Shown in pieces: positions 2,682 through 64,000 of a DNA stretch of 64,000 nucleotides. The DNA lies in the NCBI RefSeq assembly GCF_050920415.1, contig NZ_CP169309.1. One strand, written 5' to 3'. Below the pieces are notes generated by a model, which saw only the letters and a program-made list of their open reading frames with translations, did no database searches and was not told where the DNA came from. The stretch is from Escherichia coli. GTDB lineage: Bacteria; Pseudomonadota; Gammaproteobacteria; Enterobacterales; Enterobacteriaceae. Each line of letters starts with the position of its first letter. Position 1 is the stretch's first letter. The translations under genes and the position numbers were made by a program.

Positions 2682-2716
2682 CTTGTGCCCCGAACGTTGA
2701 ATGAATTGTGGTTCTT

Positions 2717-3493: not shown

Positions 3494-3494
3494 A

Positions 3495-3948: not shown

Positions 3949-3976
3949 AAAAAACCGCCAAATTCGGCGGTTTTTT
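3949..3976. terminator. Bidirectional rho-independent terminator (aaaaaaccgccaaattcggcggtttttt)
   Basis: GC stem with A-tract upstream and T-tract downstream, just past the sseA stop. Confidence 0.65.
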
Positions 3977-3992
3977 ATTGCCTGTAAAAAGC

Positions 3993-5043: not shown

Positions 5044-8000
5044 ATGAAAAAGTTACGCGTAGCCGCCTGCATGCTAATGCTGGCGCTGGCAGGGTGCGAC
5101 AACAACGATAACGCGCCAACAGCGGTGAAAAAAGATGCACCTTCTGAAGTTACTAAAGCGGCATCTTCAAAAAACGCGAGTTCAGCAAAACTCTCTGCAC
5201 CGGAGAGACAAAAACTGGCACAACAGAGTGCCGGTAAGGCGCTGACATTGCTGGATCTCTCTGAAGTCCAACTCGATGGCGCAGCCACGCTGGTGCTGAC
5301 CTTCTCTATCCCTCTCGACCCGGATCAGGATTTCTCGCGCGTTATTCACGTCGTCGATAAAAAAAGCGGCAAAGTGGATGGGGCCTGGGAGCTGTCAGAT
5401 AATCTTAAAGAGCTGCGTTTATGCCACCTCGAGCCGAAACGTGATTTGATCGTTACTATTGGCAAGGAGGTCAAGGCACTCAACAACGCAACCTTCAGTA
5501 AAGATTACGAAAAAACTATAACTACCCGCGATATCCAGCCCAGCGTCGGTTTTGCCAGCCGTGGTTCGCTGCTGCCTGGAAAAGTCATTGAAGGGCTGCC
5601 GGTAATGGCGCTCAATGTTAACAATGTCGATGTTAACTTCTTCCGTGTTAAGCCAGAATCTCTGCCAGCATTTATTAGCCAATGGGAATACCGAAATTCG
5701 CTGGCGAACTGGCAGTCAGACAAACTGCTGCAAATGGCGGATCTGGTTTATACCGGACGTTTTGATCTCAATCCTGCGCGTAACACCCGTGAAAAATTAT
5801 TGCTGCCGCTGGGTGATATCAAACCGCTTCAGCAGGCGGGTGTGTATCTGGCTGTGATGAATCAGGCTGGACGTTACGATTACAGTAATCCCGCGACGCT
5901 GTTTACATTAAGTGATATCGGCGTATCGGCCCACCGTTATCACAATCGTCTGGATATCTTTACCCAAAGCCTGGAAAACGGCGCGGCCCAGCAAGGAGTT
6001 GAAGTCTCATTATTAAATGAGAAAGGGCAGACTCTGACTCAGGCAACCAGTGATGCCCAGGGGCATGTGCAGCTGGAAAATGATAAAAACGCGGCATTAC
6101 TGTTGGCGCGTAAAGACGGTCAGACAACGCTACTCGATTTAAAACTTCCGGCGCTGGACTTAGCAGAATTTAACATTGCTGGCGCGCCAGGCTATAACAA
6201 ACAGTTTTTCATGTTTGGCCCGCGCGATCTTTATCGCCCGGGTGAAACAGTCATCCTTAATGGTTTATTGCGTGATGCAGACGGTAAAGCGTTGCCCGAT
6301 CAACCCATCAAGCTGGACGTAATTAAACCCGACGGGCAGGTACTCAGGAGCGTCGTTAGTCAGCCGGCGAATGGCCTCTATCACTTTACCTGGCCACTCG
6401 ATAGTAATGCGGCCACCGGCATGTGGCATATCCGAGCCAACACGGGCGATAACCAGTATCGGATGTGGGATTTCCACGTCGAAGATTTTATGCCAGAGCG
6501 CATGGCGCTGAATCTGAACGGTGAGAAAACCCCGCTAACGCCGAAAGATGAAGTGAAATTCTCCGTGGTGGGTTACTACCTGTACGGGGCGCCTGCTAAT
6601 GGTAATACTTTGCAAGGGCAACTTTTCCTGCGCCCACTGCGTGAAGCTGTGTCAGCCTTACCTGGTTTCGAATTCGGCGATATAGCTGCTGAAAACCTTT
6701 CGCGCACGCTGGATGAAGTTCAGTTGACGCTGGATGATAAAGGGCGCGGCGAAGTTTCTACAGAAAGCCAGTGGAAGGAAACGCATTCCCCATTACAGGT
6801 TATTTTCCAGGGCAGTTTGCTGGAGTCTGGCGGTCGCCCGGTGACGCGCCGTGCTGAGCAGGCTATCTGGCCTGCCGATGCATTGCCGGGGATCCGTCCG
6901 CAATTCGCCTCGAAATCGGTTTACGATTATCGCACTGACAGTACGGTAAAACAGCCCATTGTTGATGAAGGCAGTAACGCCGCTTTTGACATCGTATATA
7001 GCGATGCACAGGGCGTCAAAAAAGCTGTGTCTGGCTTACAAGTGCGCCTGATTCGCGAACGCCGCGATTACTACTGGAACTGGTCAGAAGATGAAGGCTG
7101 GCAGTCACAGTTTGATCAAAAAGATCTGATCGAAAATGAACAAACACTGGATCTTCAGGCTGATGAAACCGGTAAAGTCAGTTTCCCGGTAGAGTGGGGC
7201 GCTTATCGTCTGGAAGTCAAAGCGCCGAATGAAGCGGTCAGTAGTGTGCGTTTCTGGGCTGGCTATAGCTGGCAGGACAATAGCGACGGTAGCGGTGCTG
7301 TGCGACCAGACCGTGTCACGCTGAAACTGGATAAAGCCAGTTATCGCCCTGGTGATACCATTAAGTTGCACATTGCCGCGCCAACGGCGGGTAAAGGCTA
7401 TGCGATGGTCGAGTCCAGTGAAGGGCCGCTGTGGTGGCAGGAGATTGATGTTCCGGCACAAGGGCTGGATCTGACGATTCCGGTCGATAAAACCTGGAAT
7501 CGTCATGATCTTTATTTAAGTACACTGGTGGTACGTCCTGGCGATAAATCCCGCTCCGCGACGCCAAAACGCGCAGTTGGCGTGTTGCATTTGCCGCTTG
7601 GCGATGAAAACCGTCGTCTCGATCTGGCGCTGGAAACTCCAGCGAAAATACGCCCCAATCAGCCATTAACCGTGAAAATTAAAGCCAGCAATAAAAATGG
7701 TGAGATGCCAAAACAGGTGAATGTGCTGGTGTCTGCGGTTGATAGCGGTGTGCTGAATATTACTGATTATGTCACGCCAGATCCGTGGCAGGCATTCTTT
7801 GGTCAGAAACGCTATGGCGCAGATATTTACGATATTTACGGTCAGGTCATTGAAGGTCAGGGGCGTCTGGCAGCTCTGCGTTTTGGTGGCGATGGTGATG
7901 AACTGAAACGCGGGGGTAAACCGCCAGTAAATCACGTCAATATTGTTGCGCAACAGGCGCTACCGGTAACACTCAACGAACAGGGCGAAGGCACGGTTAC

Positions 8001-10005
8001 ATTGCCGATTGGTGATTTTAACGGTGAATTGCGCGTCATGGCACAAGCATGGACGGCAGATGATTTCGGTAGCAACGAAAGCAAAGTGGTTGTTGCCGCA
8101 CCGGTGATAGCAGAACTGAACATGCCGCGCTTTATGGCCGGCGGTGACACCTCACGTCTGACACTGGATATCACTAATCTTACCGAAAAACCGCAAAAAC
8201 TGAACGTTGCTCTGACCGCCAGTGGCTTGCTTGAACTGGTTAGCGATTCACCCGCAGCCGTTGAATTAGCGCCGGGCGTGCGAACCACGCTGTTTATCCC
8301 GGTGCGAGCATTGCCGGGTTATGGTGATGGTGAAATTCAGGCCACTATTAGCGGGTTAGCGTTACCGGGCGAAACCGCTGCCGATCAGCATAAGCAGTGG
8401 AAAATGGGTGTCCGTCCGGCATTTCCGGCACAAACCGTCAATTACGGTACGGCGTTGCAGCCTGGTGAGACATGGGCGATTCCAGCTGATGGATTGCAAA
8501 ACTTCTCGCCTGTTACGCTGGAAGGGCAATTGTTGTTGAGCGGCAAACCACCGTTGAATATTGCACGTTATATCAAAGAGTTAAAAGCGTATCCGTACGG
8601 TTGTCTGGAGCAAACCGCCAGCGGCCTGTTCCCGTCACTTTACACCAACGCAGCCCAACTGCAGGCGTTGGGAATCAAAGGCGACAGTGATGAGAAGCGC
8701 CGTGCGGCAGTCGATATCGGCATTTCTCGTTTACTGCAAATGCAACGTGATAACGGTGGCTTTGCGCTGTGGGATAAAAACGGTGATGAAGAGTACTGGC
8801 TGACGGCTTACGTGATGGATTTCCTGGTCCGCGCAGGTGAGCAGGGTTACAGCGTGCCGACAGAAGCCATTAACCGGGGGAATGAGCGTCTACTGCGCTA
8901 TTTACAAGATCCGGGCATGATGTCGATTCCGTATGCGGATAATCTCAAAGCCAGTAAATTCGCCGTACAGTCTTACGCTGCGCTGGTGCTGGCCCGTCAG
9001 CAAAAGGCACCGCTGGGTGCGCTGCGTGAAATCTGGGAGCATCGTGCCGATGCTGCGTCTGGATTACCGCTGCTGCAACTTGGCGTTGCGCTGAAAACCA
9101 TGGGCGATGCAACGCGTGGTGAAGAAGCGATTGTGCTGGCGCTGAAAACGCCGCGCAATAGTGATGAGCGGATATGGCTGGGTGATTACGGTAGTCCACT
9201 GCGCGACAACGCATTGATGCTCTCCTTGCTGGAAGAGAACAAATTGCTACCCGATGAGCAGTACCCTCTGCTGAACACACTTTCGCAGCAGGCGTTCGGT
9301 GAACGCTGGTTATCAACTCAGGAAAGTAACGCGTTGTTCCTGGCTGCCCGTACGATTCAGGATTTACCGGGCAAATGGCAGGCGCAAACGTCTTTCTCTG
9401 CTGAGCTGCTGACAGGTGAGAAAGCGCAAACCAGCAATCTGAATAGCGATCAACTTGCCACCTTACAGGTGACCAACAGTGGCGATCAGCCGTTATGGCT
9501 GCGTGTGGATGCCAGCGGTTATCCGCAATCCGCCCCTTTACCGGCGAGCAATGTGCTGCAAATCGAGCGCCATATTCTTGGCACTGACGGTAAGAGCAAA
9601 TCGCTGGATTCGTTACGTAGCGGCGATCTGGTACTGGTCTGGTTGCAGGTCAAAGCCAGTAACAGCGTGCCGGATGCTTTGGTCGTTGATTTACTGCCTG
9701 CTGGCCTGGAACTGGAAAACCAGAACCTGGCTAACGGCAGCGCCAGCCTGGAGCAAAGTGGTAGCGAAGTGCAAAACCTACTCAGTCAAATGCAACAAGC
9801 GAACATTAAGCATATTGAGTTTCGTGACGATCGCTTTGTGGCGGCGGTTGCCGTTGATGAATATCAACCAGTCACGCTGGTGTATCTGGCGCGGGCGGTA
9901 ACGCCGGGAACATACAATGTTCCGCAACCAATGGTGGAATCGATGTATGTTCCCCACTGGCGGGCGACTGGCGCGGCTGAAGATCTGTTGATTGTCAGAC
10001 CGTAA
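5044..10005 (+). CDS. yfhM: Alpha-2-macroglobulin family lipoprotein YfhM
   Basis: 1653 aa; lipoprotein signal with lipobox LALAGC; thioester-region motif CLEQ; followed directly by pbpC. Confidence 0.9.
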   Translation: MKKLRVAACMLMLALAGCDNNDNAPTAVKKDAPSEVTKAASSKNASSAKLSAPERQKLAQQSAGKALTLLDLSEVQLDGAATLVLTFSIPLDPDQDFSRVIHVVDKKSGKVDGAWELSDNLKELRLCHLEPKRDLIVTIGKEVKALNNATFSKDYEKTITTRDIQPSVGFASRGSLLPGKVIEGLPVMALNVNNVDVNFFRVKPESLPAFISQWEYRNSLANWQSDKLLQMADLVYTGRFDLNPARNTREKLLLPLGDIKPLQQAGVYLAVMNQAGRYDYSNPATLFTLSDIGVSAHRYHNRLDIFTQSLENGAAQQGVEVSLLNEKGQTLTQATSDAQGHVQLENDKNAALLLARKDGQTTLLDLKLPALDLAEFNIAGAPGYNKQFFMFGPRDLYRPGETVILNGLLRDADGKALPDQPIKLDVIKPDGQVLRSVVSQPANGLYHFTWPLDSNAATGMWHIRANTGDNQYRMWDFHVEDFMPERMALNLNGEKTPLTPKDEVKFSVVGYYLYGAPANGNTLQGQLFLRPLREAVSALPGFEFGDIAAENLSRTLDEVQLTLDDKGRGEVSTESQWKETHSPLQVIFQGSLLESGGRPVTRRAEQAIWPADALPGIRPQFASKSVYDYRTDSTVKQPIVDEGSNAAFDIVYSDAQGVKKAVSGLQVRLIRERRDYYWNWSEDEGWQSQFDQKDLIENEQTLDLQADETGKVSFPVEWGAYRLEVKAPNEAVSSVRFWAGYSWQDNSDGSGAVRPDRVTLKLDKASYRPGDTIKLHIAAPTAGKGYAMVESSEGPLWWQEIDVPAQGLDLTIPVDKTWNRHDLYLSTLVVRPGDKSRSATPKRAVGVLHLPLGDENRRLDLALETPAKIRPNQPLTVKIKASNKNGEMPKQVNVLVSAVDSGVLNITDYVTPDPWQAFFGQKRYGADIYDIYGQVIEGQGRLAALRFGGDGDELKRGGKPPVNHVNIVAQQALPVTLNEQGEGTVTLPIGDFNGELRVMAQAWTADDFGSNESKVVVAAPVIAELNMPRFMAGGDTSRLTLDITNLTEKPQKLNVALTASGLLELVSDSPAAVELAPGVRTTLFIPVRALPGYGDGEIQATISGLALPGETAADQHKQWKMGVRPAFPAQTVNYGTALQPGETWAIPADGLQNFSPVTLEGQLLLSGKPPLNIARYIKELKAYPYGCLEQTASGLFPSLYTNAAQLQALGIKGDSDEKRRAAVDIGISRLLQMQRDNGGFALWDKNGDEEYWLTAYVMDFLVRAGEQGYSVPTEAINRGNERLLRYLQDPGMMSIPYADNLKASKFAVQSYAALVLARQQKAPLGALREIWEHRADAASGLPLLQLGVALKTMGDATRGEEAIVLALKTPRNSDERIWLGDYGSPLRDNALMLSLLEENKLLPDEQYPLLNTLSQQAFGERWLSTQESNALFLAARTIQDLPGKWQAQTSFSAELLTGEKAQTSNLNSDQLATLQVTNSGDQPLWLRVDASGYPQSAPLPASNVLQIERHILGTDGKSKSLDSLRSGDLVLVWLQVKASNSVPDALVVDLLPAGLELENQNLANGSASLEQSGSEVQNLLSQMQQANIKHIEFRDDRFVAAVAVDEYQPVTLVYLARAVTPGTYNVPQPMVESMYVPHWRATGAAEDLLIVRP

Positions 10006-26209: not shown

Positions 26210-29200
26210 CGGTGATTTTTACGGTACTCACCAGCCCGGACGTGGCGCAGGCTACGATGTGGGGCCATATGGCGGAGACGGTAGAAGCCCACGGTTACAC
26301 CTTCAGTCGACCAAAGCTGGCGGCAGAAGTCAGCAATGAAAGCGCCACGGTCGTCGATCATAACGAAACCTGGTCCACCTTCACCTGGAGCGGCGCAGAT
26401 AGCCACTGCACCGTGCTGCCCGGCATGCGCCACTTCGGCGCGCTGGCGACCGTTATCCCCACGTCGGTGCAGACAGTCCTTGGCTGGCCGATGCAGGGGG
26501 ATTATTACTGGTCATCGCTGGCGGGCACCACCGGGCACCACCGGGCAGCACCATGCGGCGGATGTTTCAAACCGTGGTGAAATGCAAAAGCCGGATAGCA
26601 CCCCGTTTCTTGTGAGCTGCGTGGATAAACCCGCGCCTGACGTCGAACCGAAAATCGTCCTTACGCCCGAAAACTATGATGATACGGCACAGGCGATGAA
26701 AGCGAAGGTGGGTGAAGACGCCTCGATGCGTCTGACAATCACCGACAATAAAAATAACGATCAACCGCTGGCGTATTACTACTTCTCGCTGCATCTGGAT
26801 GACGGTGTTAACCGCAAAAATCAAACCGATCCTGCCTGGGAAGCCCATCCGGTGCAGATTACTGGTGGTTCGAATTTGCAACAGGTTGATGCTCACACCT
26901 ATGAAGGCATGACCGATGTCAACGGTCAGGCTTCGCTAACCCTGAGCCAGCCCGACGGCGCAGGCGTGAAAACCCATATCACGGCGAAAATGCGCAGCAA
27001 TTTTACGGCCACGGATGCCAAAGACGTGATTTTTACTGTGATCACCAGTCCGGACAGCGACAAGGCGCGGATGTGGGGCCATATGCGCGGCATTGTTGTA
27101 TCTGGCAGTCTGTTCAAACGCCCATTACTTGCGGATGAAACTGAGCATGAACTGGGATCGGTGCGGGAAAATAACGAAGACTGGGCGCTGTTCGATCAAG
27201 ACACCAGTATGCAGGCAGAATGCGGTGTGGGCCATATACCCCGGCAGAGTTCGCTGGAAGGCTTATTTACTGCCCATCCAGGCAACGCCATCGGCACGGA
27301 ATATGGCTGGCCCACCGCACAACAGAGCTACTTAAGCGCGGCGGAGCAAGCCACGCATTCATCGGTGAATTTGGCGAACGGGAGCGTCGACAGCTACTCC
27401 GGCTTTAAGCGAAATTATCTCTCCTGTTCGGGCAATGAGATGGTAGCGAACGTTGAAGTCAGCACCGATCACGATATTACTCTCGGCAGCAAAGCACAGG
27501 CCAAAGTGGGAGACACCATCGTGATGACCGTGCGTACGATTAACGCGCTCAATAATACCCCCGTTCCCTTTACAGCCTTCACCATCACTAAAGGCATGGG
27601 GTATAACCGAGCGGGGCAGGTGAGCGGGTTTGATGACCCGAGCAGCGGCGCAATCACGATGAATGGCACGCAATACGGCACATCGCAGCCCTCTATGGTC
27701 TACACGGGTACGACAGATGCACAAGGTGTAGCAACGGTCGAAATAGAGCAACCCCAAGGGGTGGGGTTAAGAACCGTGCTGAGCATTACGCCGGTCAATT
27801 CCCATCTACCAAATGCCATTAATTACAATGTTATTTTTACCACCCCAACCAGCCCGGATGTTAGTGGGGCGCAGATGTGGGGCCATATGGATGAAACGAT
27901 TACCGTTGATTCATTAACCTTTACCCGGCCTAAGCTGGCAGCAGAAATCACCAGTCCGGATGGCACATTAACGGAAAAAAACGAAGTCTGGGCGCGTGTT
28001 AGCCAGGCAAGTACGGCCATTACCAGTAAAGGCGGTTGCGGAGCCAATATGCTGCCGCGCCGCTCACAGCTCAATGCGCTCTATGACGCTAATAACGGCA
28101 ATGCGGTGCAAACCACACACGGCTGGCCGACGCAGCGTCAGCCCTACTGGAGCAGTTCCCCCGCGGATGTAACGCCGCACTATTACACCATTGCCCTGGA
28201 TAACGGCGCACAGGCTATCGGCGGCGATACGCCGGTTTACGTCAGTTGCCTGACGACGGCGAACAAACCTGCCAGCAGCATTACGTTGGATGTGGTTGAT
28301 AACGCACAGTGGGCTGCCGGAAATAACGCGGCGAAGCTGAAAAAAGGCGAAACGCTACGGGTTAAGGTAACGGTAAAAGATGCGCAGGGTAATCCGCTCA
28401 CGGATATGCCATTTAAACTCAGTCGCGGAGACGGTTATACCCGCACGGGCGAAAAACATATTGCCGGTAGTGGCGATGCGCTGGTGGCACCGGTGGTGAT
28501 TAACAGTGGGCTGGCGGATGAAACGACGTTGAACGACACCGCGGGATTTTATACTGCCATGACCAGTAGCGACGGCAGCAAAATCCTCAATATTACACGC
28601 CCGGATACTCACGGCACCAAAACGGCGCTGACGGCGACGCTTTACTCTGATGCGACGAAAAAAGACAGCCTGGATACGATCTTTACTGTGGTCACCAGCC
28701 CGGATAGTAGCAAAGCGAAAATGTGGGGCCATATGCCGGAAACCTTAACGGCGGCAGATGGTACCGTTTTTAAACGCCCATTGCTGTTAAAGGAACTGTC
28801 AAGTCAGACCGGGCGAACATCAATATTCGAAGACAATGAAAACTGGGCGCTGTTTACCCAAACCCAGGCGAACTCAACCAGTAGCGGCTGCGGCGCTAGC
28901 TATGTTCCCACTCAGGCTGGGTTGTTGTCGTTGTTTGATAATCACGCCGGCAATACCATAAAAACCGTCCAGGGCTGGCCGGTTGTAACGCGTTATTTAT
29001 CCAGCACGCCCGACAACACTGGCATGGAACAGCGTAACTACAAAGCGGTGGATCTCGGTAATGGCACCAGTGCCATGGTGTCAACGTCGACACTGGATCT
29101 ACTGACCTGTCAAACCACGCCGGTCACCACGGTGACCCAGATTCTACTGGAAGCGGCAGATCCTGCGGCTCTGGTTTATGTTGACGATACACTGAGTGTA

Positions 29201-32200
29201 GTTAAAGCCAAAAAAGGCGAAGAGTCGGTAGTGCGCGTCACCACGAAAGATGCGCAAGGTAACCCGGTTGGCAATGCGGCGTTTATTCTGAAACGTGCCA
29301 CCAGCATAAACCGGAGGTATACATCAGCGACAGCGAGTGCAGGTGCGCTGACCGTAGCCGATGCCTGGGGAAATACGCGGAGTAATTTTCAGGCAACAAC
29401 TGAAATGATCTATGGCGTGACGGGGGCTGACGGGTCGACAACCTTTACGCTGAAACAGGATAACAGTACCGGGTTAAGAACCGATCTCACGGCATCACTG
29501 GATGGCGTCAGCGGCGTTCAGGCGACCCTCCCGGTGGTCTTTACCGTGGTAACCAGCCCAGATTCTCCTAAAGCGAATTTTTGGGGGCACATGCCTGAAA
29601 CGGTAACGGCCTCTGATGGCATGACGTATAAGCGACCATTACTGTTTAAAGAACTTACCAATAACTATGCACGCTATAGCACTTTTGAGAATGGTGAAGA
29701 TTGGGCAAGATTCAGTGTGGTTCAGTCAAATAACACCGATATGGATGGATGCGGTGCAGAGTATATGCCGACACTGGATGGCCTGCAGTCTTTGTACAGT
29801 GCCAATAGTGGTAATGCGATGGGTACAGTGCAGGGATGGCCGGTAGCAACCAGTTATCTCACCAATACACCGAGTGATACGCAATTAAGTAACCGTTATT
29901 ACAATGTGGTGCAGCTGAATTCTGGCGCGGTTTCTCAAATCGTGACCACCGTGCTGGTATTACAAACCTGTCGCACAACACCTGCGGCTGTTGCCAGCCA
30001 CGTGTCTCTGGAGCCTGCGGACGCCACGCAATTCGTTAAGGTTGACGATAATCTGAGCGCCATTAAAGTGAAAAAAGGCGATGAGGTTGTTATTCGCGTC
30101 ACGACCAAAGATGCGCAAGGAAACCCGGTGGGTAATACGCCGTTTACACTGAAGCGCAGCAGTTCTTTCAATCGCCAGAATGTATTAGTGACGATGCAGA
30201 CGGTTTCGGTGACACCCGCAGCGGCCAGTACAGTTGATACCAATGCATCGGCCACCGTGTATGGCGTGACCGGGCCAGACGGAACCACCACGATAACACT
30301 CCGACAGGATGCGTCCACCGGACTTAAAACCGACTTTTATGCCCTGTTGAATGATACCGGGGTGTCGTCGAACACCTTGCCAGTGATCTTCACCGTCGTC
30401 ACCAGCCCGGATACACCGCTGGCGGCCAACTGGGGGCATATGGCGGAAACCTTTACCAGCAGCGAAGGCGTCACCTTCAAACGGCCTTTCCTCAAAGCTG
30501 AACTTTCTGGTGGTACGGCGGTTACGACTAATAATGAAGTCTGGTCGCGTCTGACAGCAACGGAGAAAATGGATGCCAGCAAGGCTGGATGTGATGAGAG
30601 TTATCAACCGCTGATGACTGACATGCAGGGGTTGTATGCGGATTACCCTAACAACCAGTTGGGCACGGTGCTCGGCTTGCCGACTTCCGCAGGGTATATG
30701 TGGGCCTACGACATGATGACGGTTTCTGGCAGCAGCTGGAGCAACCAGGCATATTCGCTCGTTAATGGTCAGATAGTTCAGGCATCGTCCAGTTATACGG
30801 CGGTAGTGATGTGCCTGGTGGAACCGCATACCGTTCCGGCGACGATAGCGATCACTTCAACAGCGCAGGATGTGGCAAAAACGGCCAGCAATGGTGGTCG
30901 ACCGAGCGCCGTGGCGAAGAAAGGTGAGACGATTCCGCTGACGGTGACCGTACGTGATAGCGCCGGGAACCCGGTGCCCTACGCCGACTTTACCCTCACG
31001 CGTGAAACGACGCTGGATCGCTCGAAAGCAACCGTTAACTCAAATGCGGACGATCTTACCGTGAAGTCATTGATACCCGTGAACAGCGACGCTGGGCTGA
31101 CGGCAAATGGGTCAAAAGTGCTCAGAACAACGGGCAGTGATGGCACAGCCACCTTTGAAGTGAGTCAGAATGCCACGACCGGTCTGGCGACACCGATAAC
31201 CGTCACGCTGGCGCGCGATACAACCAAAACCGCCACGCTGGATGTTATCTACACGGTGATAACCAGCCCGGACTCACCGAGCGCGAAATTCTGGGGGCAC
31301 ATGCCGGACACCTTTACCAGTTCGGCAGGCGTCACCTTCAGACGACCGCTGCTGAAAGCCGAAGCGACTTCAGGGTCATCGATTAGCACTAACGGCAATG
31401 GTGAAGTGTGGTCGTATATGAGCAACTTTCAAAATTTAACATCGACAGATTGTCCGCTGGAGAATCAACCGCGCAGTAATGAATTGTTGGATTTGTATAA
31501 TGATCATCCCAACGGTGCGATAAAGACTGACCTGGGGCTGCCGATATATGCAGGCAAGTGGTGGGCTTATGATATGGTCATGCCGGATTTATATACGTGG
31601 CAGTATCAAACTGTCAGCCTGAGCGCAGGAGATATCGCGAAGAGCTCGTCAACCAACGCGCTGATGCTTTGCCTGACGAAGCCGCATCCGGCAGGCGTCA
31701 GCGTAATGTTGACGTCATCCGCAATGGATAACGCCAGAACCCTCAGTAATGGCGGGCGACCCAGCGCGTCAGTGAAAAAAGGTAACCCACTGCCAATTGT
31801 GGTGACGGTCAAAGATCGTGATGGTAACCCGCTGGCGGGAGAGGCCGTGACGCTCAGGCGTGGTTCAGCGATGAGTCGTTCAGGAGCAGGAGTGAACACG
31901 ACGGCAAATGCAATTACGTTGACAGAATTGACACCTGTGTCGGCGGAGTTTTCTCTGGCCGCACACGATACGCAATGGCAAGGTTTCACCGGCAGTGATG
32001 GTACGGCCACTTTCAATGTTGAACAGCCTGAGACCATCGGCCTGGCCATTCCATTCACCGCTATACTGGCGCGAGATGTCGCAACTACCAGCGTTCTTGA
32101 TGCGATCTTTACCGTCGTCACCAGCCCGGATTCCGCAATGGCGACCTACTGGGGCCATATGCCAGATACGGTAACGGCGGAAAACGGCGTGGTCTTTGAA

Positions 32201-33000
32201 CGGCCTAAATTGTTGAAAGAGCTGCCGTCGAGCGCTGGAGTCAGTCAGGTGACGGATAACAATGAAGTGTGGCCGTTGTTTAACGCAACGCAAAGGGTAG
32301 ACGGCAACCTCAGCCCATGTGAATCGGCGCGTCGCCCATTGAGCGATGATTTATCATCGCTCTATGCGCGTTATCCGGGGAACACGCTGACGACTCAAAT
32401 CGGCTGGTCTACGAAGTATGCATGGTGGGCACTGGATAACAGGCAGGGGAATGCCCTGGTTGTCAGTCTGAGTAATGGTTTGGAGTCGTCGACGGCGAGT
32501 ACGGCGTATCAGGGATGTCTGGTCAATCCTCGCGCGACCGTCTCCAGCGTCACGCTGACATCGACCGCGATGGATGCCATTACTCAGGCGGCGAAGGTAA
32601 AAAAAGGTGAAGCCATGCCCATTGTCGTTACCGTAAAAGACAGCACCGGGAAGCCGGCACCGAATGTCGCGTTCACCTTAAAACGTGGTGATGCCGTGCC
32701 GCGTAACAGCGGGGCGACGTTGTATGGTAATGTTGCGGCGATGGATGATATGACGGTACAACCTGCCAGCGGGACGGTGGTAACGCTGGCTGACAGTGGG
32801 AATACGATTGATGGTGTGACAGGGGCGGACGGTACGGCAAGTTTTACTGTTCGTCAGGATAATACGCCAGGATATAAAACACCGTTGACGGTGACGCTGA
32901 CGGATAACGCCACAATAACGGCGACGCTGGACACAATTTTCACCGTGCCGACCAGCCCGAATGTCGCCACGGCGTATTTCTGGGGGCATATGGCGGATAC
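26210..33000 (+). repeat. Array of about nine diverged ~850-bp coding tandem modules within ratA
   Basis: Conserved DNA/protein core ttYaccgtggtcaccagcccggat...tggggccatatg recurs near 26210, 27040, 27830, 28680, 29540, 30390, 31250, 32100, 32940. Confidence 0.7.
26523..26552 (+). repeat. Three tandem copies of a 10-bp unit (gggcaccacc, gggcaccacc, gggcagcacc) at the ratA frameshift
   Basis: Read directly; removing one copy restores a continuous frame reading ...[19 protein letters not shown]... Confidence 0.8.
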
Positions 33001-33419
33001 CGCCACAGTAAGTGGCAAGACGTTACATCGCCCGCTATTGAAATCAGAGTTGCCGTCAGGGGCTACAGCGGCAGTGGCGCCAACGGTGAATAATGAAATC
33101 TGGGCGCTGGCACATGTGATCGATGCTCAAAAATGGGATGTTGCAAAGCAGTGCGGTGACTTTAGTAAAGCACCGAGCTATACCGATTTACAGTCATTAC
33201 ATAGCAGCTTTAGCGCGCTGGGATGGCCATCATCGATAAGCTTCCCCTATTTCTCTACCGATCGGGCCGGTTCGTTCTATTGTGGCATGGATGAAGGGGC
33301 GGGGACACAAAACTGCGGTATTCAGGCATCCAGTACTGCGGGGTTTGCAACCTGCTTCCAGTAGTCTTAACGGGTCTGTAAATGGGGGCCAAGATGTAAA
33401 TAAGATTCGCAATGCGTCA

Positions 33420-38253: not shown

Positions 38254-39504
38254 GTGCTTACCGATACAAAATTAAAAAACCTCAAGCCGCAGGACAAACT
38301 GTACAAGGTCTCCGATCGTGACGGGCTGTATGTAGCTGTGCTTACGTCAGGCACGGTCTCGTTTCGCTATGACTACCGTATCAACGGTCGCCGCGAAACA
38401 CTGGTAATCGGGCAGTATGGGCGTGACGGTATCAGCCTGGCAGAAGCGCGAGAAGAACTGATTGCTGCAAAGAAGCTGCTTAAAGCAGGCCAGTCGCCGG
38501 CTGCGGCTAAACGTGACGGTATCAAAAAGATTCGTGGTGCCGAGACGTTTGCGGTACATACCGACAGTTATATGAAACACGTCATCCTGGCTGACAGTAC
38601 CCGCGCAATGAAGCAGGCGGTGATCGACCGTGACATACTTCCGGTTCTTGGCAACAAAATGATGGCTGAAATTACCACATCGATGGTTCGTGATTTGTGT
38701 GACCGGATTGTCGAACGCGGTGGTCGGGCAACAGCAGTACAGGCCAGGGAGATCATCAGCAGCGTATACCGTCACGCCAATGACCGTGGTCATGGTTTGT
38801 TTAATCCTGCGGCTGACATTAAACCTTCGTCTATCGCCATATTTAAACCACGAGAGCGAACACTGACACCAGAAGAAATTGGCCTGTTCTTCCGCACGCT
38901 GGATGCCATTGGTGCTATGGGCACTATGAAAATGGCTTTAAAGCTGGTGCTTATCACTATGGTTCGTAAAGGCGAATTCACCAATGCAACGTGGGATGAA
39001 ATAGATTTTAAAAAATGGACATGGACAATTCCTTCAGACCGCATGAAGGGAAGCCGGGCGCACGTTATTTACCTGCCTAAACAGGCACAGGATATATTGG
39101 TTGGGTTGCAGATGTGCGCTGGTGGAAGTGAATATCTGGTTCCTGGTCGTTACAATTTCCGGAAGCCATTATCTAATGCCGCGCTGAACTCTCTGATCGA
39201 CAGAACGGTGAAAATAATAAATGAAGATGGTGAGCATATTCAGGGCTTCACCGTACACGATATGCGCCGTACAGCCAGTACGTTGTTGCATGAGGCTGGT
39301 TATCCTTCAGACTGGATTGAAAAGGCTCTGGCACATGAGCAGAAAGGTGTGCGCGCCGTATATAACAAAGCGGAATACGCCAGACAGCGCGCCTACATGT
39401 TGCAGCAGTGGGCCGATATGATTGATTCCTGGATTAACGGGGAGCATACGGATCTGATTCCGTTCTCCCCGTCGAAGTTTGAGAAGTGGATGGCGGGGGA
39501 ATAA
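38254..39504 (+). CDS. int: Tyrosine integrase (P4-type, N-terminal arm-binding domain)
   Basis: 416 aa, GTG start; N-terminal DUF4102-like region and C-terminal catalytic region (HDMRRTASTLL...ALAHE...Y). Confidence 0.85.
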   Translation: MLTDTKLKNLKPQDKLYKVSDRDGLYVAVLTSGTVSFRYDYRINGRRETLVIGQYGRDGISLAEAREELIAAKKLLKAGQSPAAAKRDGIKKIRGAETFAVHTDSYMKHVILADSTRAMKQAVIDRDILPVLGNKMMAEITTSMVRDLCDRIVERGGRATAVQAREIISSVYRHANDRGHGLFNPAADIKPSSIAIFKPRERTLTPEEIGLFFRTLDAIGAMGTMKMALKLVLITMVRKGEFTNATWDEIDFKKWTWTIPSDRMKGSRAHVIYLPKQAQDILVGLQMCAGGSEYLVPGRYNFRKPLSNAALNSLIDRTVKIINEDGEHIQGFTVHDMRRTASTLLHEAGYPSDWIEKALAHEQKGVRAVYNKAEYARQRAYMLQQWADMIDSWINGEHTDLIPFSPSKFEKWMAGE

Positions 39505-53017: not shown

Positions 53018-53221
53018 AGTCTAATCTCACCTTAAAAAAATGCCCGGCGAACCGGGCGAACTGGAAGCAATGAGTTATGCCTTCCGTGGCTGTACTGGTT
53101 TACAGCATGAAGCCATCGCAATGGCGTCCTGCTGTAAAAAGGGCGGTGATAGTCCTTCAAGGGAAACCATCACCGCCAAGCCCCTGGAACTTCTGGCATC
53201 ACGGTCCTTAGGCGTGATTCT

Positions 53222-53298
53222 GGCGTGGCATGCAGGATTCGAACCTGCGACCGACCGCTTAGAAGGCGGTTGCTCTGTCCAACTGAGCTAATGCCACA
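53222..53298 (-). tRNA. tRNA-Arg (anticodon UCU), argU-like, prophage-encoded
   Basis: Folded by hand: acceptor GTGGCAT/ATGCCAC, D-arm GCTC..GAGC, anticodon stem ACCGC/GCGGT with loop CTTCTAA, T-arm GCAGG-TTCGAAT-CCTGC, discriminator G, CCA. Confidence 0.8.
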
Positions 53299-58502: not shown

Positions 58503-58826
58503 ATGGAACTCGTAAACCTCAAAACCGGCACTGACAGCTACCAGGATGAGAGCGGAGAAACCAGAACTCGCGATGAATACCCGTGGGGGCTGTGCATCAC
58601 TCTTAATAACGACACATTGAATAAGCTGAAGGCACAACCTCAGGGCGTCGGAACAGAAGTGATGATAACTGCAAAGGCTGTTATTCGAGGCCTGTCTGCC
58701 AGAGAAACTGACGATGGTGTTAATCGCAGCGCCGATCTGCAGATCACTGATATGGCGATCGCTCCTGTTTCCAGGGATGTAGAAAAATCAGCGGCTGAAA
58801 CCCTGTACGGCAATGGGGGTGAGTAA
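58503..58826 (+). CDS. Hypothetical virion protein (107 aa)
   Basis: ATG at 58503 after RBS caggag. Confidence 0.45.
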   Translation: MELVNLKTGTDSYQDESGETRTRDEYPWGLCITLNNDTLNKLKAQPQGVGTEVMITAKAVIRGLSARETDDGVNRSADLQITDMAIAPVSRDVEKSAAETLYGNGGE

Positions 58827-59431
58827 TGGCCTCTGTAGTAGAGATCTGCAATCGTGCGCTGTCCAATATTGGCAATAGCCGCAGCATTAACAGCCTGACG
58901 GAAGCCAGTAAGGAAGCGGGGGAATGTTCGCTGCACTTTGAGGCCTGCCGTGATGCTGTGCTTTCTGATTTTGACTGGAACTTTGCTACCAAACGCGTGG
59001 CGCTTGCAGATACGAGCAATCCACCGCCTGACTGGGAATATGCGTATCAGTACCCGTCAGATTGTCTGCGCATTACTGAAATTATGCTTCCTGGTGTACG
59101 CAATCCAACAGCAGCAATGCGCGTTCAGTACGAAGTTGGTGCAGACACCGACGGAACAGGAAAGTTGATCTACACAGACCAGCCGCAGGCATGGCTCAAG
59201 TATGTCTCTCGCGTTTCAGATGTGAACATGTTTGATGCCATTTTTATGGAGGCGTTGGCCTGGCGTCTTGCGGCAGCCATTAACATGGCGCTGACTGGGA
59301 ATGCGGATCTCGGTACATTTGCTCTCAATATGTACAATCGCGTGATTCTTAGTGCTGGCTCGCATAGCCAGAATGAATCACAGGAACCACAGCCACCGGT
59401 TGACGAGTTTACCATTGCGAGGTTGTCCTGA
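58826..59431 (+). CDS. Putative tail/adaptor protein (201 aa)
   Basis: Start overlaps previous stop; position before a large tail-like protein. Confidence 0.4.
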   Translation: MASVVEICNRALSNIGNSRSINSLTEASKEAGECSLHFEACRDAVLSDFDWNFATKRVALADTSNPPPDWEYAYQYPSDCLRITEIMLPGVRNPTAAMRVQYEVGADTDGTGKLIYTDQPQAWLKYVSRVSDVNMFDAIFMEALAWRLAAAINMALTGNADLGTFALNMYNRVILSAGSHSQNESQEPQPPVDEFTIARLS

Positions 59432-61902
59432 TGGCTATCAGTTGGATCCAGCCCAGCTTTGCCGGTGGTGAGATTGGACCGTCGTTGTACGGTCGTATCG
59501 ACATGGCGAAGTACCAGGTGGCATTGCGCAAGTGCGATAACTTTATCGTGCGGCAGTATGGCGGCGTTGAGAATCGACCTGGTACGCGTTTTGTCGGTGC
59601 CGCCAAATACCCAAATCGGAAATGCCGCCTGATCCCGTTCCAGTTCTCGACGGTTCAGACCTACGCTCTGGAGTTCGGACACCAGTACATGCGCGTTATC
59701 AAAGATGGTGCGTTGGTGCTGAACAGCAGCAATGTTATTTATGAAATTGCCACGCCATATACTGAAGCCGATCTGTTCCGAATTAAATTCACGCAAAGCG
59801 CCGACGTGCTTACGCTGGTTCACCCGGCATACCCGCCGAAAGAGTTGCGCCGCTATGCGCATGATAACTGGCAACTGGTTGATGTGGTAACGAAGAACGG
59901 GCCATTTGAAGATATCAATATTGACGAGTCAGTGACGGTTTATGCCAGCGCCAGCACCGGGACAATTACGTTAACGGCAAGCGCCTCTATTTTTGGCGCG
60001 GAGCAGGTAGGCAAATTGTTCTATCTGGAACAGCCTGCAGTGGATTCTGTGCCGGTATGGGAAACCAGTAAGAGTACGTCGATTGGCGATATTCGCCGTG
60101 CAGACAGTAACTACTATCGCGCCGTTACAGCAGGCAAAACAGGCACTTTGCGCCCTTCGCATACAGAAGGCACATCATGGGATGGCTGGGGCGGATCCGG
60201 TGATGATGATACCGGCATTGAGTGGGAGTATCTGCACAGTGGTTTTGGCATTGCCCGTATCTCTGCTGCAAATGGAACTACTGCAACTGCCGAGGTGATT
60301 TCCTATATCCCTTCGCAGGTCGTTGGCGAGGATAATGCCAGCTATAAATGGGCTAAATATGCCTGGAACAGTGTTAATGGTTATCCTGGCACTGTTGTTT
60401 ATTATCAACAACGTCTTTACTTCGCCGCATCGACTGCGTTCCCTCAGACTATCTGGGCCAGCCGTACTGGGGATTATAAGGATTTTGGCAAAAGCAATCC
60501 TACGCAGGATGATGACAGAATTATCTACACCTATGCCGGGCGTCAGGTTAATGAGATCCGTCACCTGATTGATGTAGGTTCGCTGGTGGCGCTGACTTCC
60601 GGAGGTGAGTACGTCATCACCGGCGACCAGAACAAAGTGTTAACCCCATCATCATTTGCATTTAGCTCTCAGGGATCAAATGGCTCAAGCAACGTCCCAC
60701 CAATTGCTGTGGCGAATATTGCTCTGTTCGTCCAGGAGAAAGGCAGTGTTGTCCGTGATCTGGCCTACTCATTCGATGTTGACGGCTATCAGGGGAACGA
60801 CCTTACTATCCTTGCCAATCATCTTTTTCAGAAGCACAGCATTGTTGACTGGTGCTTCTCTATTGTCCCTTACTCCAGCGCCTTCTGCATTCGTGATGAC
60901 GGTAAATTACTGGTGATGACCTATTTGCGTGATCAACAGGTTTTTGCATGGGCACCACAGTCCAGTACCGGAAAATATGAAAGCACATGCAGTATCAGCG
61001 AAGGAAATGAAGATGCGGTGTATTTCGTCGTTAACCGAACCGTTAACGGGCAAACAGTGAGATACATCGAGCGGCTGTCCAGCCGTTTATTTACCAGCGA
61101 TGAAGATGCTTTCTTTGTTGATTCTGGCCTTAGCTATGATGGAAGAAATACGTCTGACAGAACGATGACCATCACTGGTGGTTCTGGTGAATGGGATTAC
61201 CGCGTGGAATATACAATCAGTATTTCTGGTGGTGCGTACTTCACCAGTAGTGATGTCGGTGCGCAACTACAATTCCCTTATACCGGAACTGATCCTGATA
61301 CTGGCGATGAAGTGTCAAAAGAATTACGTTGCGACATTATTTCTGTAACCAGCAATACCGCTGTAGTGGTTCGTGCTAACAGGAACGTCCCGCCATCCCT
61401 CAGGAATGTGGCCACCACGAACTGGCAGATGGCGCGCCGGACATTTGGAGGCCTGTCTCATCTTGAAGGCCAGACCGTAAACATTCTCTCTGATGCGAAC
61501 GTGGAACCACAGAAAGTGGTTTCCGGAGGTGCCGTCACGCTGGAATCTCCGGGGGCTGTAGTGCACATCGGCCTGCCAATAACTGCTGAATTCGAAACAC
61601 TGGATATCAACATTAACGGACAGGAAACGCTGCTGGACAAAAAACAGGTGATCCCATCCGTTACTCTGGTTGTGAATGCCAGCCGCGGCATCTGGGCGAC
61701 TACGCCCGGCGGTAAATGGTACGAATATCCACAGCGTGAATTCGAGTTCTACGATGATCCTGTTGATGATGCTACCGGAAAAGTAGAAGTGAAACTGGAC
61801 AGTAACTGGGGCAAAAACGGACGTGTAAAAATCCGTCAGCTTGATCCGTTGCCGCTGTCTGTTCTTGCCGTTATTCCTCGCCTTACTGTTGGGGGATTCT
61901 GA
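59431..61902 (+). CDS. Large structural protein, putative tail tube/nozzle protein (823 aa)
   Basis: Size and position in structural module; ATGA overlap with previous gene. Confidence 0.5.
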   Translation: MAISWIQPSFAGGEIGPSLYGRIDMAKYQVALRKCDNFIVRQYGGVENRPGTRFVGAAKYPNRKCRLIPFQFSTVQTYALEFGHQYMRVIKDGALVLNSSNVIYEIATPYTEADLFRIKFTQSADVLTLVHPAYPPKELRRYAHDNWQLVDVVTKNGPFEDINIDESVTVYASASTGTITLTASASIFGAEQVGKLFYLEQPAVDSVPVWETSKSTSIGDIRRADSNYYRAVTAGKTGTLRPSHTEGTSWDGWGGSGDDDTGIEWEYLHSGFGIARISAANGTTATAEVISYIPSQVVGEDNASYKWAKYAWNSVNGYPGTVVYYQQRLYFAASTAFPQTIWASRTGDYKDFGKSNPTQDDDRIIYTYAGRQVNEIRHLIDVGSLVALTSGGEYVITGDQNKVLTPSSFAFSSQGSNGSSNVPPIAVANIALFVQEKGSVVRDLAYSFDVDGYQGNDLTILANHLFQKHSIVDWCFSIVPYSSAFCIRDDGKLLVMTYLRDQQVFAWAPQSSTGKYESTCSISEGNEDAVYFVVNRTVNGQTVRYIERLSSRLFTSDEDAFFVDSGLSYDGRNTSDRTMTITGGSGEWDYRVEYTISISGGAYFTSSDVGAQLQFPYTGTDPDTGDEVSKELRCDIISVTSNTAVVVRANRNVPPSLRNVATTNWQMARRTFGGLSHLEGQTVNILSDANVEPQKVVSGGAVTLESPGAVVHIGLPITAEFETLDININGQETLLDKKQVIPSVTLVVNASRGIWATTPGGKWYEYPQREFEFYDDPVDDATGKVEVKLDSNWGKNGRVKIRQLDPLPLSVLAVIPRLTVGGF

Positions 61903-62366
61903 TGATTGGTGTTCAAATTATTCCCGCAACCGAAGAGCATCTTCAGATGATTTTGCCGGATGTTCGTCAGGCTGATATTGACGAACTGTATGCGGTATCG
62001 CTGATGACTACCGAAGATGCGCTGCGTGTTGGTCTGCGCACTGCGACTATGGCCTGGTCAGGGTTCGCGAACGGAGAACTGGTAACCATGTTTGGTGTAT
62101 CTCCGGCGTCAATGATCGGTGGCAATGGTACGCCCTGGCTGGTCGGGACCAGCCGTATTGAAAAATATCAGAAGACATTTCTTCGCCACTGCCACCCTGT
62201 ATTGCGGCAGATGCTGGCAGTTTATCCGCGCCTGGAAAACTACGTCGACGAGCGAAACCATGTTGCCAAAGCATGGCTCCACTGGCTTGGATTCAGGCTT
62301 GAAGAAGCCGCGCCTTATGGTGCTCTTGGTCTTAATTTCCACAGATTTCACATGGAGAGAAAATAA
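61902..62366 (+). CDS. Hypothetical virion protein (154 aa)
   Basis: ORF overlapping previous stop. Confidence 0.45.
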   Translation: MIGVQIIPATEEHLQMILPDVRQADIDELYAVSLMTTEDALRVGLRTATMAWSGFANGELVTMFGVSPASMIGGNGTPWLVGTSRIEKYQKTFLRHCHPVLRQMLAVYPRLENYVDERNHVAKAWLHWLGFRLEEAAPYGALGLNFHRFHMERK

Positions 62367-62911
62367 TGTGCGATCCGGTTATTGCTGGTGGCGCAATGCT
62401 CGCCATGAGTGGCATTCAGGCATACACCCAGTACCAACAGGGAAAGTATGCCTCGAAGGTTGCAGAAGCGAACGCAGATATAGCCACAGCTCAGGCAAAT
62501 GATGCAATAAATAGGGGTAACGCTGAAGCTGAGCAACGGCGCAGAGAGACCCGACAGCGGCTTGGTACACAGGCGGCGACAATGGGGGCGACCGGCGCCG
62601 ATTTATCTACAGGTAACGCGCTGGATATATTTGGTGACACTGCTCAGTTTGGCGCCCTTGATTCGCTGACGACGGTGAATAACGCGCAACGCGAGGCTTA
62701 CGGTTATCAGGTTCAGGCTGCTAACTATAAAGCAGAAGCCAGTTCAGCCCGTAAACAGGGGAATGTGGGAGCAGCAACAACATTGCTCACTGCGCCTCTG
62801 AAGGCATACGGTGCGTACCAGATGTTTGGTGGGACGTGGAGTCCGTTTACTCAAAGCACTCCTGCGCCAATCGGGGCAGCAGCAGGAACCAGATTACCTG
62901 GAGGATTATAA
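62366..62911 (+). CDS. Hypothetical virion protein (181 aa), Ala/Gly/Gln-rich
   Basis: ORF overlapping previous stop. Confidence 0.45.
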   Translation: MCDPVIAGGAMLAMSGIQAYTQYQQGKYASKVAEANADIATAQANDAINRGNAEAEQRRRETRQRLGTQAATMGATGADLSTGNALDIFGDTAQFGALDSLTTVNNAQREAYGYQVQAANYKAEASSARKQGNVGAATTLLTAPLKAYGAYQMFGGTWSPFTQSTPAPIGAAAGTRLPGGL

Positions 62912-64000
62912 TGCCAGTCGTACCAACAGTATCCGGACGTCAGGTTGAGAGCCGTGGAGTTCAGTCAGCAGGCTTGCAGACGTTTTCTCAGCCAGGTATT
63001 GGTGATGCTTTTGTTCGGGCAGGGGCAGAGACAATTGATGTTTTTGGTCAGGCAAAACAGCGTGCCAATATCGCTCTGGCTCAGGAGGCATCCCTTAAAC
63101 TCAGTCAGACAGGCAGCGATCTGCTGAATAACCCTGAAACAGGTTTGCTTAACCTGAAAGGGAAAAATGCTATTGGAAAAGGTCAGGAGTATACGCAGCA
63201 GTTTGATGCTCAGATCGAACAACTGGCTATGTCGCTGCCGGATGAACAGGCTCGTAATGCTTTCATGCAGCAGGCGCAGCAGCAGCGTATTCAGTTCACT
63301 ACGCAGGCCGGGCGGCACGAGATAGGGCAAATAAATGCCTACGAAGAAGGTCAGTTTCAGGCGACGCTGCTGAACAATGGTAAAAATGCCGCAGCATTGT
63401 ATGGCGACAATGCCGCATACGTATTGGCTAATAAGCAAACTTTCCAGCAAATTGAGGAGTACGGTGCTGCACATGGCTGGAGCGACGAGCAAATACAGGC
63501 CAAGAAAATCGAGTTTAAAGAGAAGGTTGCTGATGCAGCATTGTCCCAGTGGTCGGCAAACAATGCGATCTCATTTATCCAAAGTAATGGCGAGTTAAGC
63601 GATACTGCTGCTGGAGCTCGCCGTGCTGTAGCAGATAGTGACTCTTCCGAGCGTGCCCGTGGCATACGCAACAATAACCCAGGAAATCTCGAATACAGCA
63701 AAACTAATCCGTGGGTAGGCCAGACCGGTGATGATGGTCGATTTGCTAAATTCGAAACACCTGAACACGGGATTCGTGCATTAGGGCGGAACCTGATGTC
63801 GTATCAGAGGCAGGGTATTGATACCGTCAGCGAGATAATTAATCGCTGGGCACCGCCTACTGATAAAAATGACACTATGTCGTATATCAAAGCAGTGTGC
63901 GAACAACTTGGCGTTTCTGCTGATGAGCCTCTCGATGCATCTAATCCTGATACCCTGAAGGCGCTTTGTGCAGCCATTATCCATCATGAGAACGGTAGCC
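62911..64000 (+). CDS. Large virion-associated protein, N-terminal 363 aa only (continues beyond window); contains GIRNNNPGNLEY motif
   Basis: Frame-1 reading frame open from ATG 62911 (taATG overlap) to window end with no stop; not in ORF track because it is unterminated. Confidence 0.5.
   Translation, partial: MPVVPTVSGRQVESRGVQSAGLQTFSQPGIGDAFVRAGAETIDVFGQAKQRANIALAQEASLKLSQTGSDLLNNPETGLLNLKGKNAIGKGQEYTQQFDAQIEQLAMSLPDEQARNAFMQQAQQQRIQFTTQAGRHEIGQINAYEEGQFQATLLNNGKNAAALYGDNAAYVLANKQTFQQIEEYGAAHGWSDEQIQAKKIEFKEKVADAALSQWSANNAISFIQSNGELSDTAAGARRAVADSDSSERARGIRNNNPGNLEYSKTNPWVGQTGDDGRFAKFETPEHGIRALGRNLMSYQRQGIDTVSEIINRWAPPTDKNDTMSYIKAVCEQLGVSADEPLDASNPDTLKALCAAIIHHENGS

Follow-up and report, generated by a model that had tools for sequence, protein, structure and literature searches.

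Genes and features at the locus

The window, a 64,000-nucleotide stretch of Escherichia coli DNA (contig NZ_CP169309.1), ends inside a gene on the plus strand. From the ATG at 62911 to the last base at 64000 the frame is stop-free over 363 codons, as an earlier sequence-only reading of the same DNA had it, and the remaining five frames across this interval contain 4 to 36 stops each. Sequence comparison places the gene in a phiV10/epsilon15-like (Uetakevirus) prophage, which carries an integrase ORF at 38254..39504 and extends from near 38047 to beyond the window end. The prophage is 97.9% identical to phage phiv142-3, with 93% of 24 kb covered. The features discussed below are as follows.

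58826..61902, plus strand: two tail genes (201 aa and 823 aa) at the positions of the T7 gp11 adaptor and gp12 nozzle; PHROGs 394, 9239 and 376.
61902..62366, plus strand: internal virion protein of 154 aa, an epsilon15 gp13 homologue at the T7 gp13 position; PHROG 308.
62366..62911, plus strand: T7 gp14-family virion core protein of 181 aa, the upstream neighbour; Pfam PF24072, PHROG 418 and PGAP name.
62900..62904, plus strand: Shine-Dalgarno sequence GGAGG, read from the sequence, with a spacing of 6 nt to the ATG at 62911; the start/stop overlap there fits translational coupling.
62911..64000, plus strand: 5′ part of the epsilon15 gp15/phiV10 gp18 ortholog, 363 of ~837 codons, truncated by the window.
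63028..63588, plus strand: predicted N-terminal long-helix scaffold, aa 40-226; AlphaFold2 (AF2) pLDDT ~90, with matches to PHROGs 1044 and 10475.
63646..63999, plus strand: predicted Enc34-type (PHA02564/PM2 P5-like) peptidoglycan hydrolase domain, aa 246-363 in the window, with the domain end near aa 380.
63661..63696, plus strand: family signature GIRNNNPGNLEY (aa 251-262) at the start of the hydrolase domain, covering helix alpha1 and the start of the long loop.
63847..63849, plus strand: Trp313, aligned with Enc34 Trp79, a proposed substrate-positioning aromatic (PMC8943055); at least 90% conserved in 53 homologues.
63883..63885, plus strand: Tyr325, aligned with Enc34 Tyr95; invariant in both homologue alignments (n = 53 and n = 37).
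63988..63990, plus strand: Glu360, in HHENGS, aligned with the proposed catalytic Glu131 of Enc34; 10 nt short of the window end.

The two tail genes open the coupled operon leading into the gene at 62911. PHROG 9239, one of their families, is labelled ‘tail tubular protein’, and the epsilon15 gp11 record notes an HHpred match to T7 tail tubular protein A. The product of 61902..62366 matches PHROG 308, ‘internal virion protein’, with an E value of 6e-62, and the epsilon15 gp13 record notes a GNAT-like fold by HHpred. The ORF at 62366..62911 matches the Pfam T7_gp14 model (PF24072) at 31.2 bits against a cutoff of 27, and its product is a ‘virion core protein, T7 gp14 family’ in PGAP and an ‘internal virion protein’ in PHROG 418. 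In T7, gp14 is a component of the outer-membrane pore. Adjacent genes overlap by 1 nt at four junctions (59431, 61902, 62366, and 62911), the last of these being a TAATG in which ATG 62911 overlaps the TAA stop of the gp14-like ORF, and such single-base start/stop overlaps are typical of operons with translational coupling. Read from its 5′ end, the operon encodes an adaptor-like, a nozzle-like, a small internal, and a gp14-like protein, then the product of the 62911 gene and two further large proteins; the genes downstream of the phiV10-type ortholog encode proteins of 600 aa and 824 aa.

Identity of the gene and its orthologs

By sequence, the gene at 62911 is the ortholog of phiV10 gp18 and of Salmonella phage epsilon15 gp15 (837-842 aa). 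Megablast of the 1090 bases matched 18 phage records, all Uetakevirus-like, and identity over this length is 97% to phiV10 and its relatives and 76% to epsilon15. Substitutions relative to phiV10 carry a coding signal, with 21 of the 33 substituted bases at third codon positions. At the protein level, epsilon15 gp15 (AAO06078.1) shares 59% amino acid identity along its full length, and PHROG 992 is matched at E 2e-130 by the fragment and at E 0 by the full-length protein. The gene order around the ORF is identical to that of phiV10 and epsilon15. RefSeq calls the phiV10 ortholog (PhiV10p18, YP_512272.1, 837 aa) ‘head protein’, and its GenBank name is ‘hypothetical structural protein’, with the remark ‘similar to structural protein P5 from phage PM2’; it is also found as ‘internal virion protein/head protein’, and ‘virion protein’ occurs among the GenBank names of the orthologous group. 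The 842-aa epsilon15 gp15 is recorded as ‘putative lytic transglycosylase’. With an ortholog of this kind directly after a T7_gp14-family gene, the earlier suggestion of an ejection or internal virion protein is supported.

The truncation at 64000 is attributed to the window edge, not to biology, because the nearest complete genomes carry the full ORF. When the sequence is followed past 64000 in near-identical E. coli genomes, a check that the sequence-only reading had proposed, the ORF continues to 837 aa. The window thus holds the 5′ 43% of the gene (363 of ~837 codons), and what is said here of the remainder is taken from those near-identical genomes. Four complete E. coli chromosomes match the final 3 kb of the window apart from a single mismatch, at 63160, which makes residue 84 a Trp in the four genomes and a Gly in the window and phiV10. 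These four best-matching genomes have a stop in the nozzle gene that is absent from the window. In RefSeq, WP_023150293.1 (‘hypothetical protein’, 837 aa, E. coli prophages) differs by 1 residue across the 363 aa in the window.

The Enc34-type hydrolase domain

The sequence-only reading had singled out a conserved NNPGN segment but could not assign its family. In a full-length alignment of 37 sequences, Arg253, Asn254, Asn256, Pro257, Gly258, and Asn259 are invariant, and the same residues are at least 90% conserved in 53 domain homologues. Because of these six invariant residues, the segment is judged, at the level of sequence, not to be a chance string. Scans of the fragment and of full-length homologues against Pfam-A and NCBIfam returned no family even at E values up to 1, so the domain family was reached through a PDB sequence search and PHROGs. 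The PDB search gave two specific matches. One is 7Q47 (phmmer E 2.8e-17 over aa 249-367; profile search E 2.4e-40), the catalytic domain of the Hafnia phage Enc34 endolysin. The other is the 1295-aa chain ‘Gp29’ of 9VVP (E 5.5e-38; profile search E 3.3e-62). GIRNNNPGNLEY is aligned with RGIRNNNPGNIEW of Enc34 and RGIRNNNPGNIRV of 9VVP Gp29. PHROGs matching aa ~245-362 are families labelled ‘endolysin’, ‘tail injection transglycosylase’, and ‘tape measure’.

The predicted structure agrees with the sequence matches. The AlphaFold2 model of aa 243-381 has a pLDDT of 93.3, and a Foldseek search with it, the kind of structure search that had been proposed, found only 7Q47 among solved structures (E 1.4e-11, TM 0.84). 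The predicted domain is largely helical, like the alpha-lobe of lysozyme as in 7Q47. The last domain helix (aa ~368-378) lies beyond the window. Sequence and predicted fold identify the NNPGN segment as the signature with which an Enc34-type/PHA02564 peptidoglycan hydrolase domain begins. The cell-wall-acting domain that had been suggested as a possibility is thus matched by sequence, predicted fold, and triad residues, and the family, left unassigned earlier, can now be assigned. A true stop codon, or the lack of a conserved domain, had been named as findings that would speak against the reading; there is no stop codon in the frame, and a conserved domain was detected.

Characterised relatives provide insight into what this domain may do. 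The Enc34 domain (NCBI family PHA02564) has a helical fold resembling the alpha-lobe of lysozyme, with a long loop lying across the substrate groove, and it lyses outer-membrane-permeabilised E. coli, P. aeruginosa, and H. alvei (Cernooka et al., PMC8943055). Its Glu131/Tyr95/Trp79 signature superposes on the catalytic residues of GH73 and GH23, and the catalytic role proposed for this triad rests on that superposition (PMC8943055). The proposed catalytic glutamate has its counterpart in Glu360 of the window protein, which is invariant in the 37 full-length homologues and at least 90% conserved in the 53 domain homologues. M4Lys, of the same family, degrades purified peptidoglycan (PMC7143992), and muralytic activity has been demonstrated for the constructs Enc34 ORF39deltaC and M4LysdeltaTMD (PMC8943055, PMC7143992). 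P5, a virion protein of PM2, has the same triad and is assigned to this family by Yutin et al. (PMC9502842), which ties in with the older phiV10 note on similarity to P5. From these relatives we infer both the enzymatic activity of the window protein and the bond that it would cleave. With regard to that bond, database names say ‘lytic transglycosylase’, while Cernooka et al. argue for N-acetylglucosaminidase specificity in Enc34 (PMC8943055).

The family is large, with 13,229 cluster representatives at E values up to 0.001 in a library of 1.84 billion proteins, and its layouts are varied. Some members are stand-alone proteins of ~140 aa; in others the domain is N-terminal or, in proteins of 700-950 aa, lies mid-chain at ~245-380, and the largest members reach 3773 aa. 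The Gp29 chain, present in 4 copies in 9VVP, is an example of the N-terminal layout. A tblastn search with the 9VVP sequence identified Gp29 as a Kayfunavirus gp16 homologue, with the gp16 of phage CLB_P1 being exactly 1295 aa long; the unrelated adaptor ‘gp29’ of XacM4-11 was excluded as the source. The T7 core contains the same number of gp16 copies, 4 (PMC5850374). From residue 125 (T7 residue 152) to its end, CLB_P1 gp16 is 53% identical to T7 gp16, and its residues 4-130 are an Enc34-type domain, 55% identical to the domain in the window (E 2e-39). The Enc34-type domain therefore occupies, in Kayfunavirus gp16, the place of the N-terminal Pfam SLT transglycosylase of T7 gp16. In a T7-like phage, the Enc34-type module thus takes on the transglycosylase job of gp16. 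The Pfam SLT domain itself (PF01464) is absent from the window protein at E values up to 1; T7 gp16 scores 108.6 bits.

The helical scaffold around the domain

The AF2 model of the full-length protein has a pLDDT of 82.6 and a pTM of 0.53. Its head (aa 1-43) is predicted to be disordered, with pLDDT below 50, and the long-helix scaffold is followed by a low-confidence linker (aa 229-245), the enzyme domain, helices at aa 395-640, and a mixed alpha/beta tail. In the model, then, the protein is a helical scaffold (aa ~40-226 and ~395-825) with an Enc34-type cassette (aa ~246-380) inserted between its two parts. The maximum Kyte-Doolittle value is 1.02, and there is no transmembrane-grade hydrophobic segment, which would fit a periplasmic rather than a membrane role. 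A resemblance of aa 51-154 to apolipoprotein A-I was not significant (profile E ~0.2).

The scaffold is common to other podophage proteins at the same genomic position. ORF14 of Pseudomonas phage Ab31 aligns with aa 1-213 (BLASTP, 26% identity, E 1e-9) and also with aa 407-543, with only ~40 residues separating the two blocks. Neither an Enc34-type domain (hhalign probability 0.3%) nor any Pfam domain is present in it. A protein of Yersinia phage YeP5 has the C-terminal half in common with the full-length protein, and the Enc34-type domain is missing there too. When the N-terminal 242 aa were used for a word-indexed homologue search, only ortholog fragments came back. In a Foldseek search of the full-length model against BFVD, the whole chain aligns to phage proteins of 650-900 aa, A0A6J5KIS0, A0A0F7L447, and A0A8S5Q2L0 among them, and the UniProt names of the matches, which are evidence by name alone, include GH108, SLT, tail lysozyme, LT_GEWL, and NlpC/P60. 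Because of the scaffold homologues without the domain (Ab31, YeP5) and the names of the BFVD matches, the conserved helical protein seems to hold the enzyme domain as an optional cassette, and possibly as an exchangeable one.

It is conceivable, at slightly short of an even chance, that in epsilon15-like and related podophages the helical protein occupying the T7 gp15 position is a plug-in platform that comes enzyme-less, with an Enc34-type cassette, or, going by BFVD names only, with other cassettes. If this were true, one chain would unite the channel-forming and wall-cutting jobs that are split in T7 between gp15 and the N-terminal part of gp16, and the choice of cassette would tune entry to the host wall.

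Neither profile comparison nor fold search detected a relation between the helical flanks and T7 gp15 or gp16. Homology of the flanks to these T7 core proteins was rejected at this sensitivity, with nothing returned by profile comparison. Of the features of the T7 gp15 family, the window protein has the position directly downstream of a gp14-family gene, and sequence or fold homology was not found. The proposed channel role thus draws on synteny and analogy.

A proposed role at entry and its alternatives

Taken together, the evidence makes it quite probable that the window ORF encodes a virion-borne ejection protein, whose enzyme cassette would open the cell wall locally at entry. The protein would be packaged in the particle with the products of its neighbours, the T7 gp14-like protein and the 600-aa and 824-aa downstream proteins. 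Once the tailspikes bind O-antigen, these proteins would be expelled via the portal and tail and would rebuild as a periplasm-spanning channel. The cassette would then cut glycan strands locally, with Glu360 acting as the acid and Trp313 and Tyr325 positioning the sugar, allowing the channel and DNA to pass the murein layer. Ejection of the window protein and its place in the channel are proposed by analogy. Phage epsilon15 has an internal core, and a periplasm-spanning tube was seen by tomography during infection (PMC5850374, citing Jiang 2006 and Chang 2010). A function at entry and not at lysis is favoured by the gp14-adjacent operon in T7 order, by the separate lysis cassette of phiV10, and, most tellingly, by Kayfunavirus gp16 carrying the same domain.

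The main rival concerns location only. The window protein may be an external component of the tail hub or central tube, with its hydrolase pre-positioned at the tail tip, and not an ejected internal core protein. We regard this as unlikely, although older epsilon15 studies by genetics and cryo-EM, Guichard 2013 and Jiang 2006 in the form in which they are cited, place gp15 (with gp16 and gp17) in the tail injection device, hub, or central tube and give gp17 as the core, and the flanks have no fold similarity to T7 core proteins. The hub is already accounted for by the genes at the adaptor and nozzle positions, which match PHROG ‘tail tubular’ families. Moreover, the gene lies directly 3′ of the T7_gp14-family core gene, RefSeq calls phiV10 gp16 and gp17 ‘internal virion protein’, and the Kayfunavirus carrier of this domain, the gp16 homologue, is a bona fide core protein.

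Alternatively, the domain could be catalytically dead and purely structural, for example a channel ‘wing’ or spacer, with murein gaps or host enzymes permitting passage through the wall. The scaffold homologues that lack the domain, Ab31 ORF14 and the YeP5 protein, indicate that the enzyme is dispensable for some phages. Moak and Molineux are said to have reported in 2000 a need for the T7 gp16 transglycosylase under some conditions only. A review gives the same picture of a conditional need, with the domain required to bring the genome into cells whose murein is highly cross-linked (PMC8954989). A spacer, however, would not be expected to keep Glu360 and Tyr325 invariant and Trp313 and RNNNPGN nearly invariant across 37 to 53 diverse homologues, and the isolated Enc34 and M4Lys domains are active (PMC8943055, PMC7143992). 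A dead module is therefore very improbable. More improbable still is that the protein is the lysis endolysin of the phage, even though PHROGs 1044, 873, and 10475 and the Ab31 homologue all bear the name ‘endolysin’ and the characterised members of the family, Enc34 ORF39 and M4Lys, are endolysins. At 837 aa, the protein is encoded in a structural operon between core-protein genes and outside any lysis cassette, and the phiV10 genome encodes a holin, a COG3179-type endolysin, and Rz/Rz1 at a separate site. The Ab31 ‘endolysin’ has no hydrolase domain at all, which argues that its name was carried over by family label. The reading that we prefer thus remains that of an ejection protein with a wall-opening cassette.

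Annotation and significance

The gene is already known, with a nearly identical entry in RefSeq. Annotation of its phage orthologs as structural or muralytic is years old, and for the domain both a crystal structure and activity measurements exist. The significance of the locus goes little beyond correct annotation, and the practical gain is a better name. In E. coli genomes the PGAP label is ‘hypothetical protein’, and neither Pfam-A nor NCBIfam holds a model for the domain. We suggest ‘ejection protein with Enc34-type (PHA02564) peptidoglycan hydrolase domain’, which would supplant the misleading labels ‘head protein’ and ‘endolysin’. Mild novelty lies only in the cassette-on-scaffold pattern, which offers a modest lead for studies of podophage ejectosomes and for searches for muralytic modules active against Gram-negative bacteria.

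Comparison with known systems

From 58826 onward, the operon order mirrors T7 genes 11 to 16. The window protein has in common with T7 gp16 and Kayfunavirus gp16 a wall-cutting module on a packaged ejection protein. The placement differs, as the domain is mid-chain on a protein at the T7 gp15 position instead of N-terminal on a gp16 homologue. Enc34 ORF39, a lysis enzyme of 26 kDa, carries a membrane anchor at its C-terminus and has its gene in a lysis cassette, whereas in the window protein the domain is an internal insert within an 837-aa structural protein. The ejectosome of Pectobacterium phage PhiM1 is alike in that its helical ejection proteins have muralytic domains inserted at varying positions, with an octameric protein containing a lysozyme-like domain and a tetrameric protein containing an inserted endolysin-like domain (PMC11440229). 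This likeness is one of description, and the enzyme families and the phage lineage are different from those of the window protein.

The closest counterparts are phiV10 gp18 and epsilon15 gp15, which share the operon position and the three-part build of the window protein and show no difference of substance from it. Within this group, the C-terminal 438 aa of the phiV10-type protein, a portion beyond the window, are ~40% identical to epsilon15 but 88% identical to SPN1S, identities that, at the sequence level, show mosaicism.

Composition of the Full-Length Gene

Judged from its levels of identity to related phages, the full-length gene at the window's end, the ortholog of phiV10 gp18 and epsilon15 gp15, is a mosaic. 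Its 5′ 1090 nt share ~76% identity with epsilon15, while the C-terminal 438 amino acids, which lie beyond the window (15109-16422 of L004, the record holding the full-length gene), share only ~40% identity with epsilon15 gp15, 88% with Salmonella phage SPN1S, and 91% with Enterobacter phage Tyrion. Within the 5′ part, the window carries G at 63160, which encodes Gly84 as in phiV10; in the four closest E. coli genomes this single base is T, which encodes Trp84.

The Enc34-type peptidoglycan hydrolase domain of this gene (63646-63999) has ~13,000 cluster representatives, and no model for it was found in Pfam-A or NCBIfam. Some proteins contain multiple copies, as in a 762-residue library match (P0129) with four matched stretches, and another match (P0259) reaches 3773 amino acids. 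In Pseudomonas phage Ab31, the scaffold homologue ORF14 (L009, the Ab31 record, 2685-4784) is annotated as “endolysin” or “putative structural lysozyme”, and no hydrolase domain is detectable in it. The “endolysin” name seems to have been transferred from cassette-bearing members of the family, PHROG 1044.

Prophage Context

The Uetakevirus-like prophage has its left end near 38047, where similarity to phage phiv142-3 sets in, and the sequence upstream looks like host chromosome throughout. No tRNA gene was found at this left junction (near 38047). Inside the prophage, a tRNA-Arg gene lies between those for the terminase and the portal protein, oriented against them; it is annotated in related E. 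coli prophages as well.

Features of the window outside the gene under study
5044..10005, very long ORF in the host-like part upstream of the prophage
26336..33364, very long ORF in the same host-like part
38254..39504, integrase-sized ORF at the prophage left end
53221-53297, minus strand, tRNA-Arg gene, anticodon TCT
59431-61902, plus strand, nozzle-like tail gene, 823 aa, epsilon15 gp12 homologue, intact
61902-62366, plus strand, internal virion protein, 154 aa, PHROG 308

In E. coli SCU-116, MS20673 and Eco_23-2678, whose prophages are otherwise nearly identical to the window prophage, the nozzle-like gene is annotated as a pseudogene interrupted by a stop codon, which in SCU-116 falls at codon 342. 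These three prophages may be defective, while the window copy of the gene may be functional.

The 154-residue protein is a homologue of epsilon15 gp13, which is annotated by HHpred as having a GNAT acetyltransferase-like fold. The product of 61902-62366 would be a packaged protein, acetyltransferase-like by the gp13 annotation, in the position of T7 gp13.
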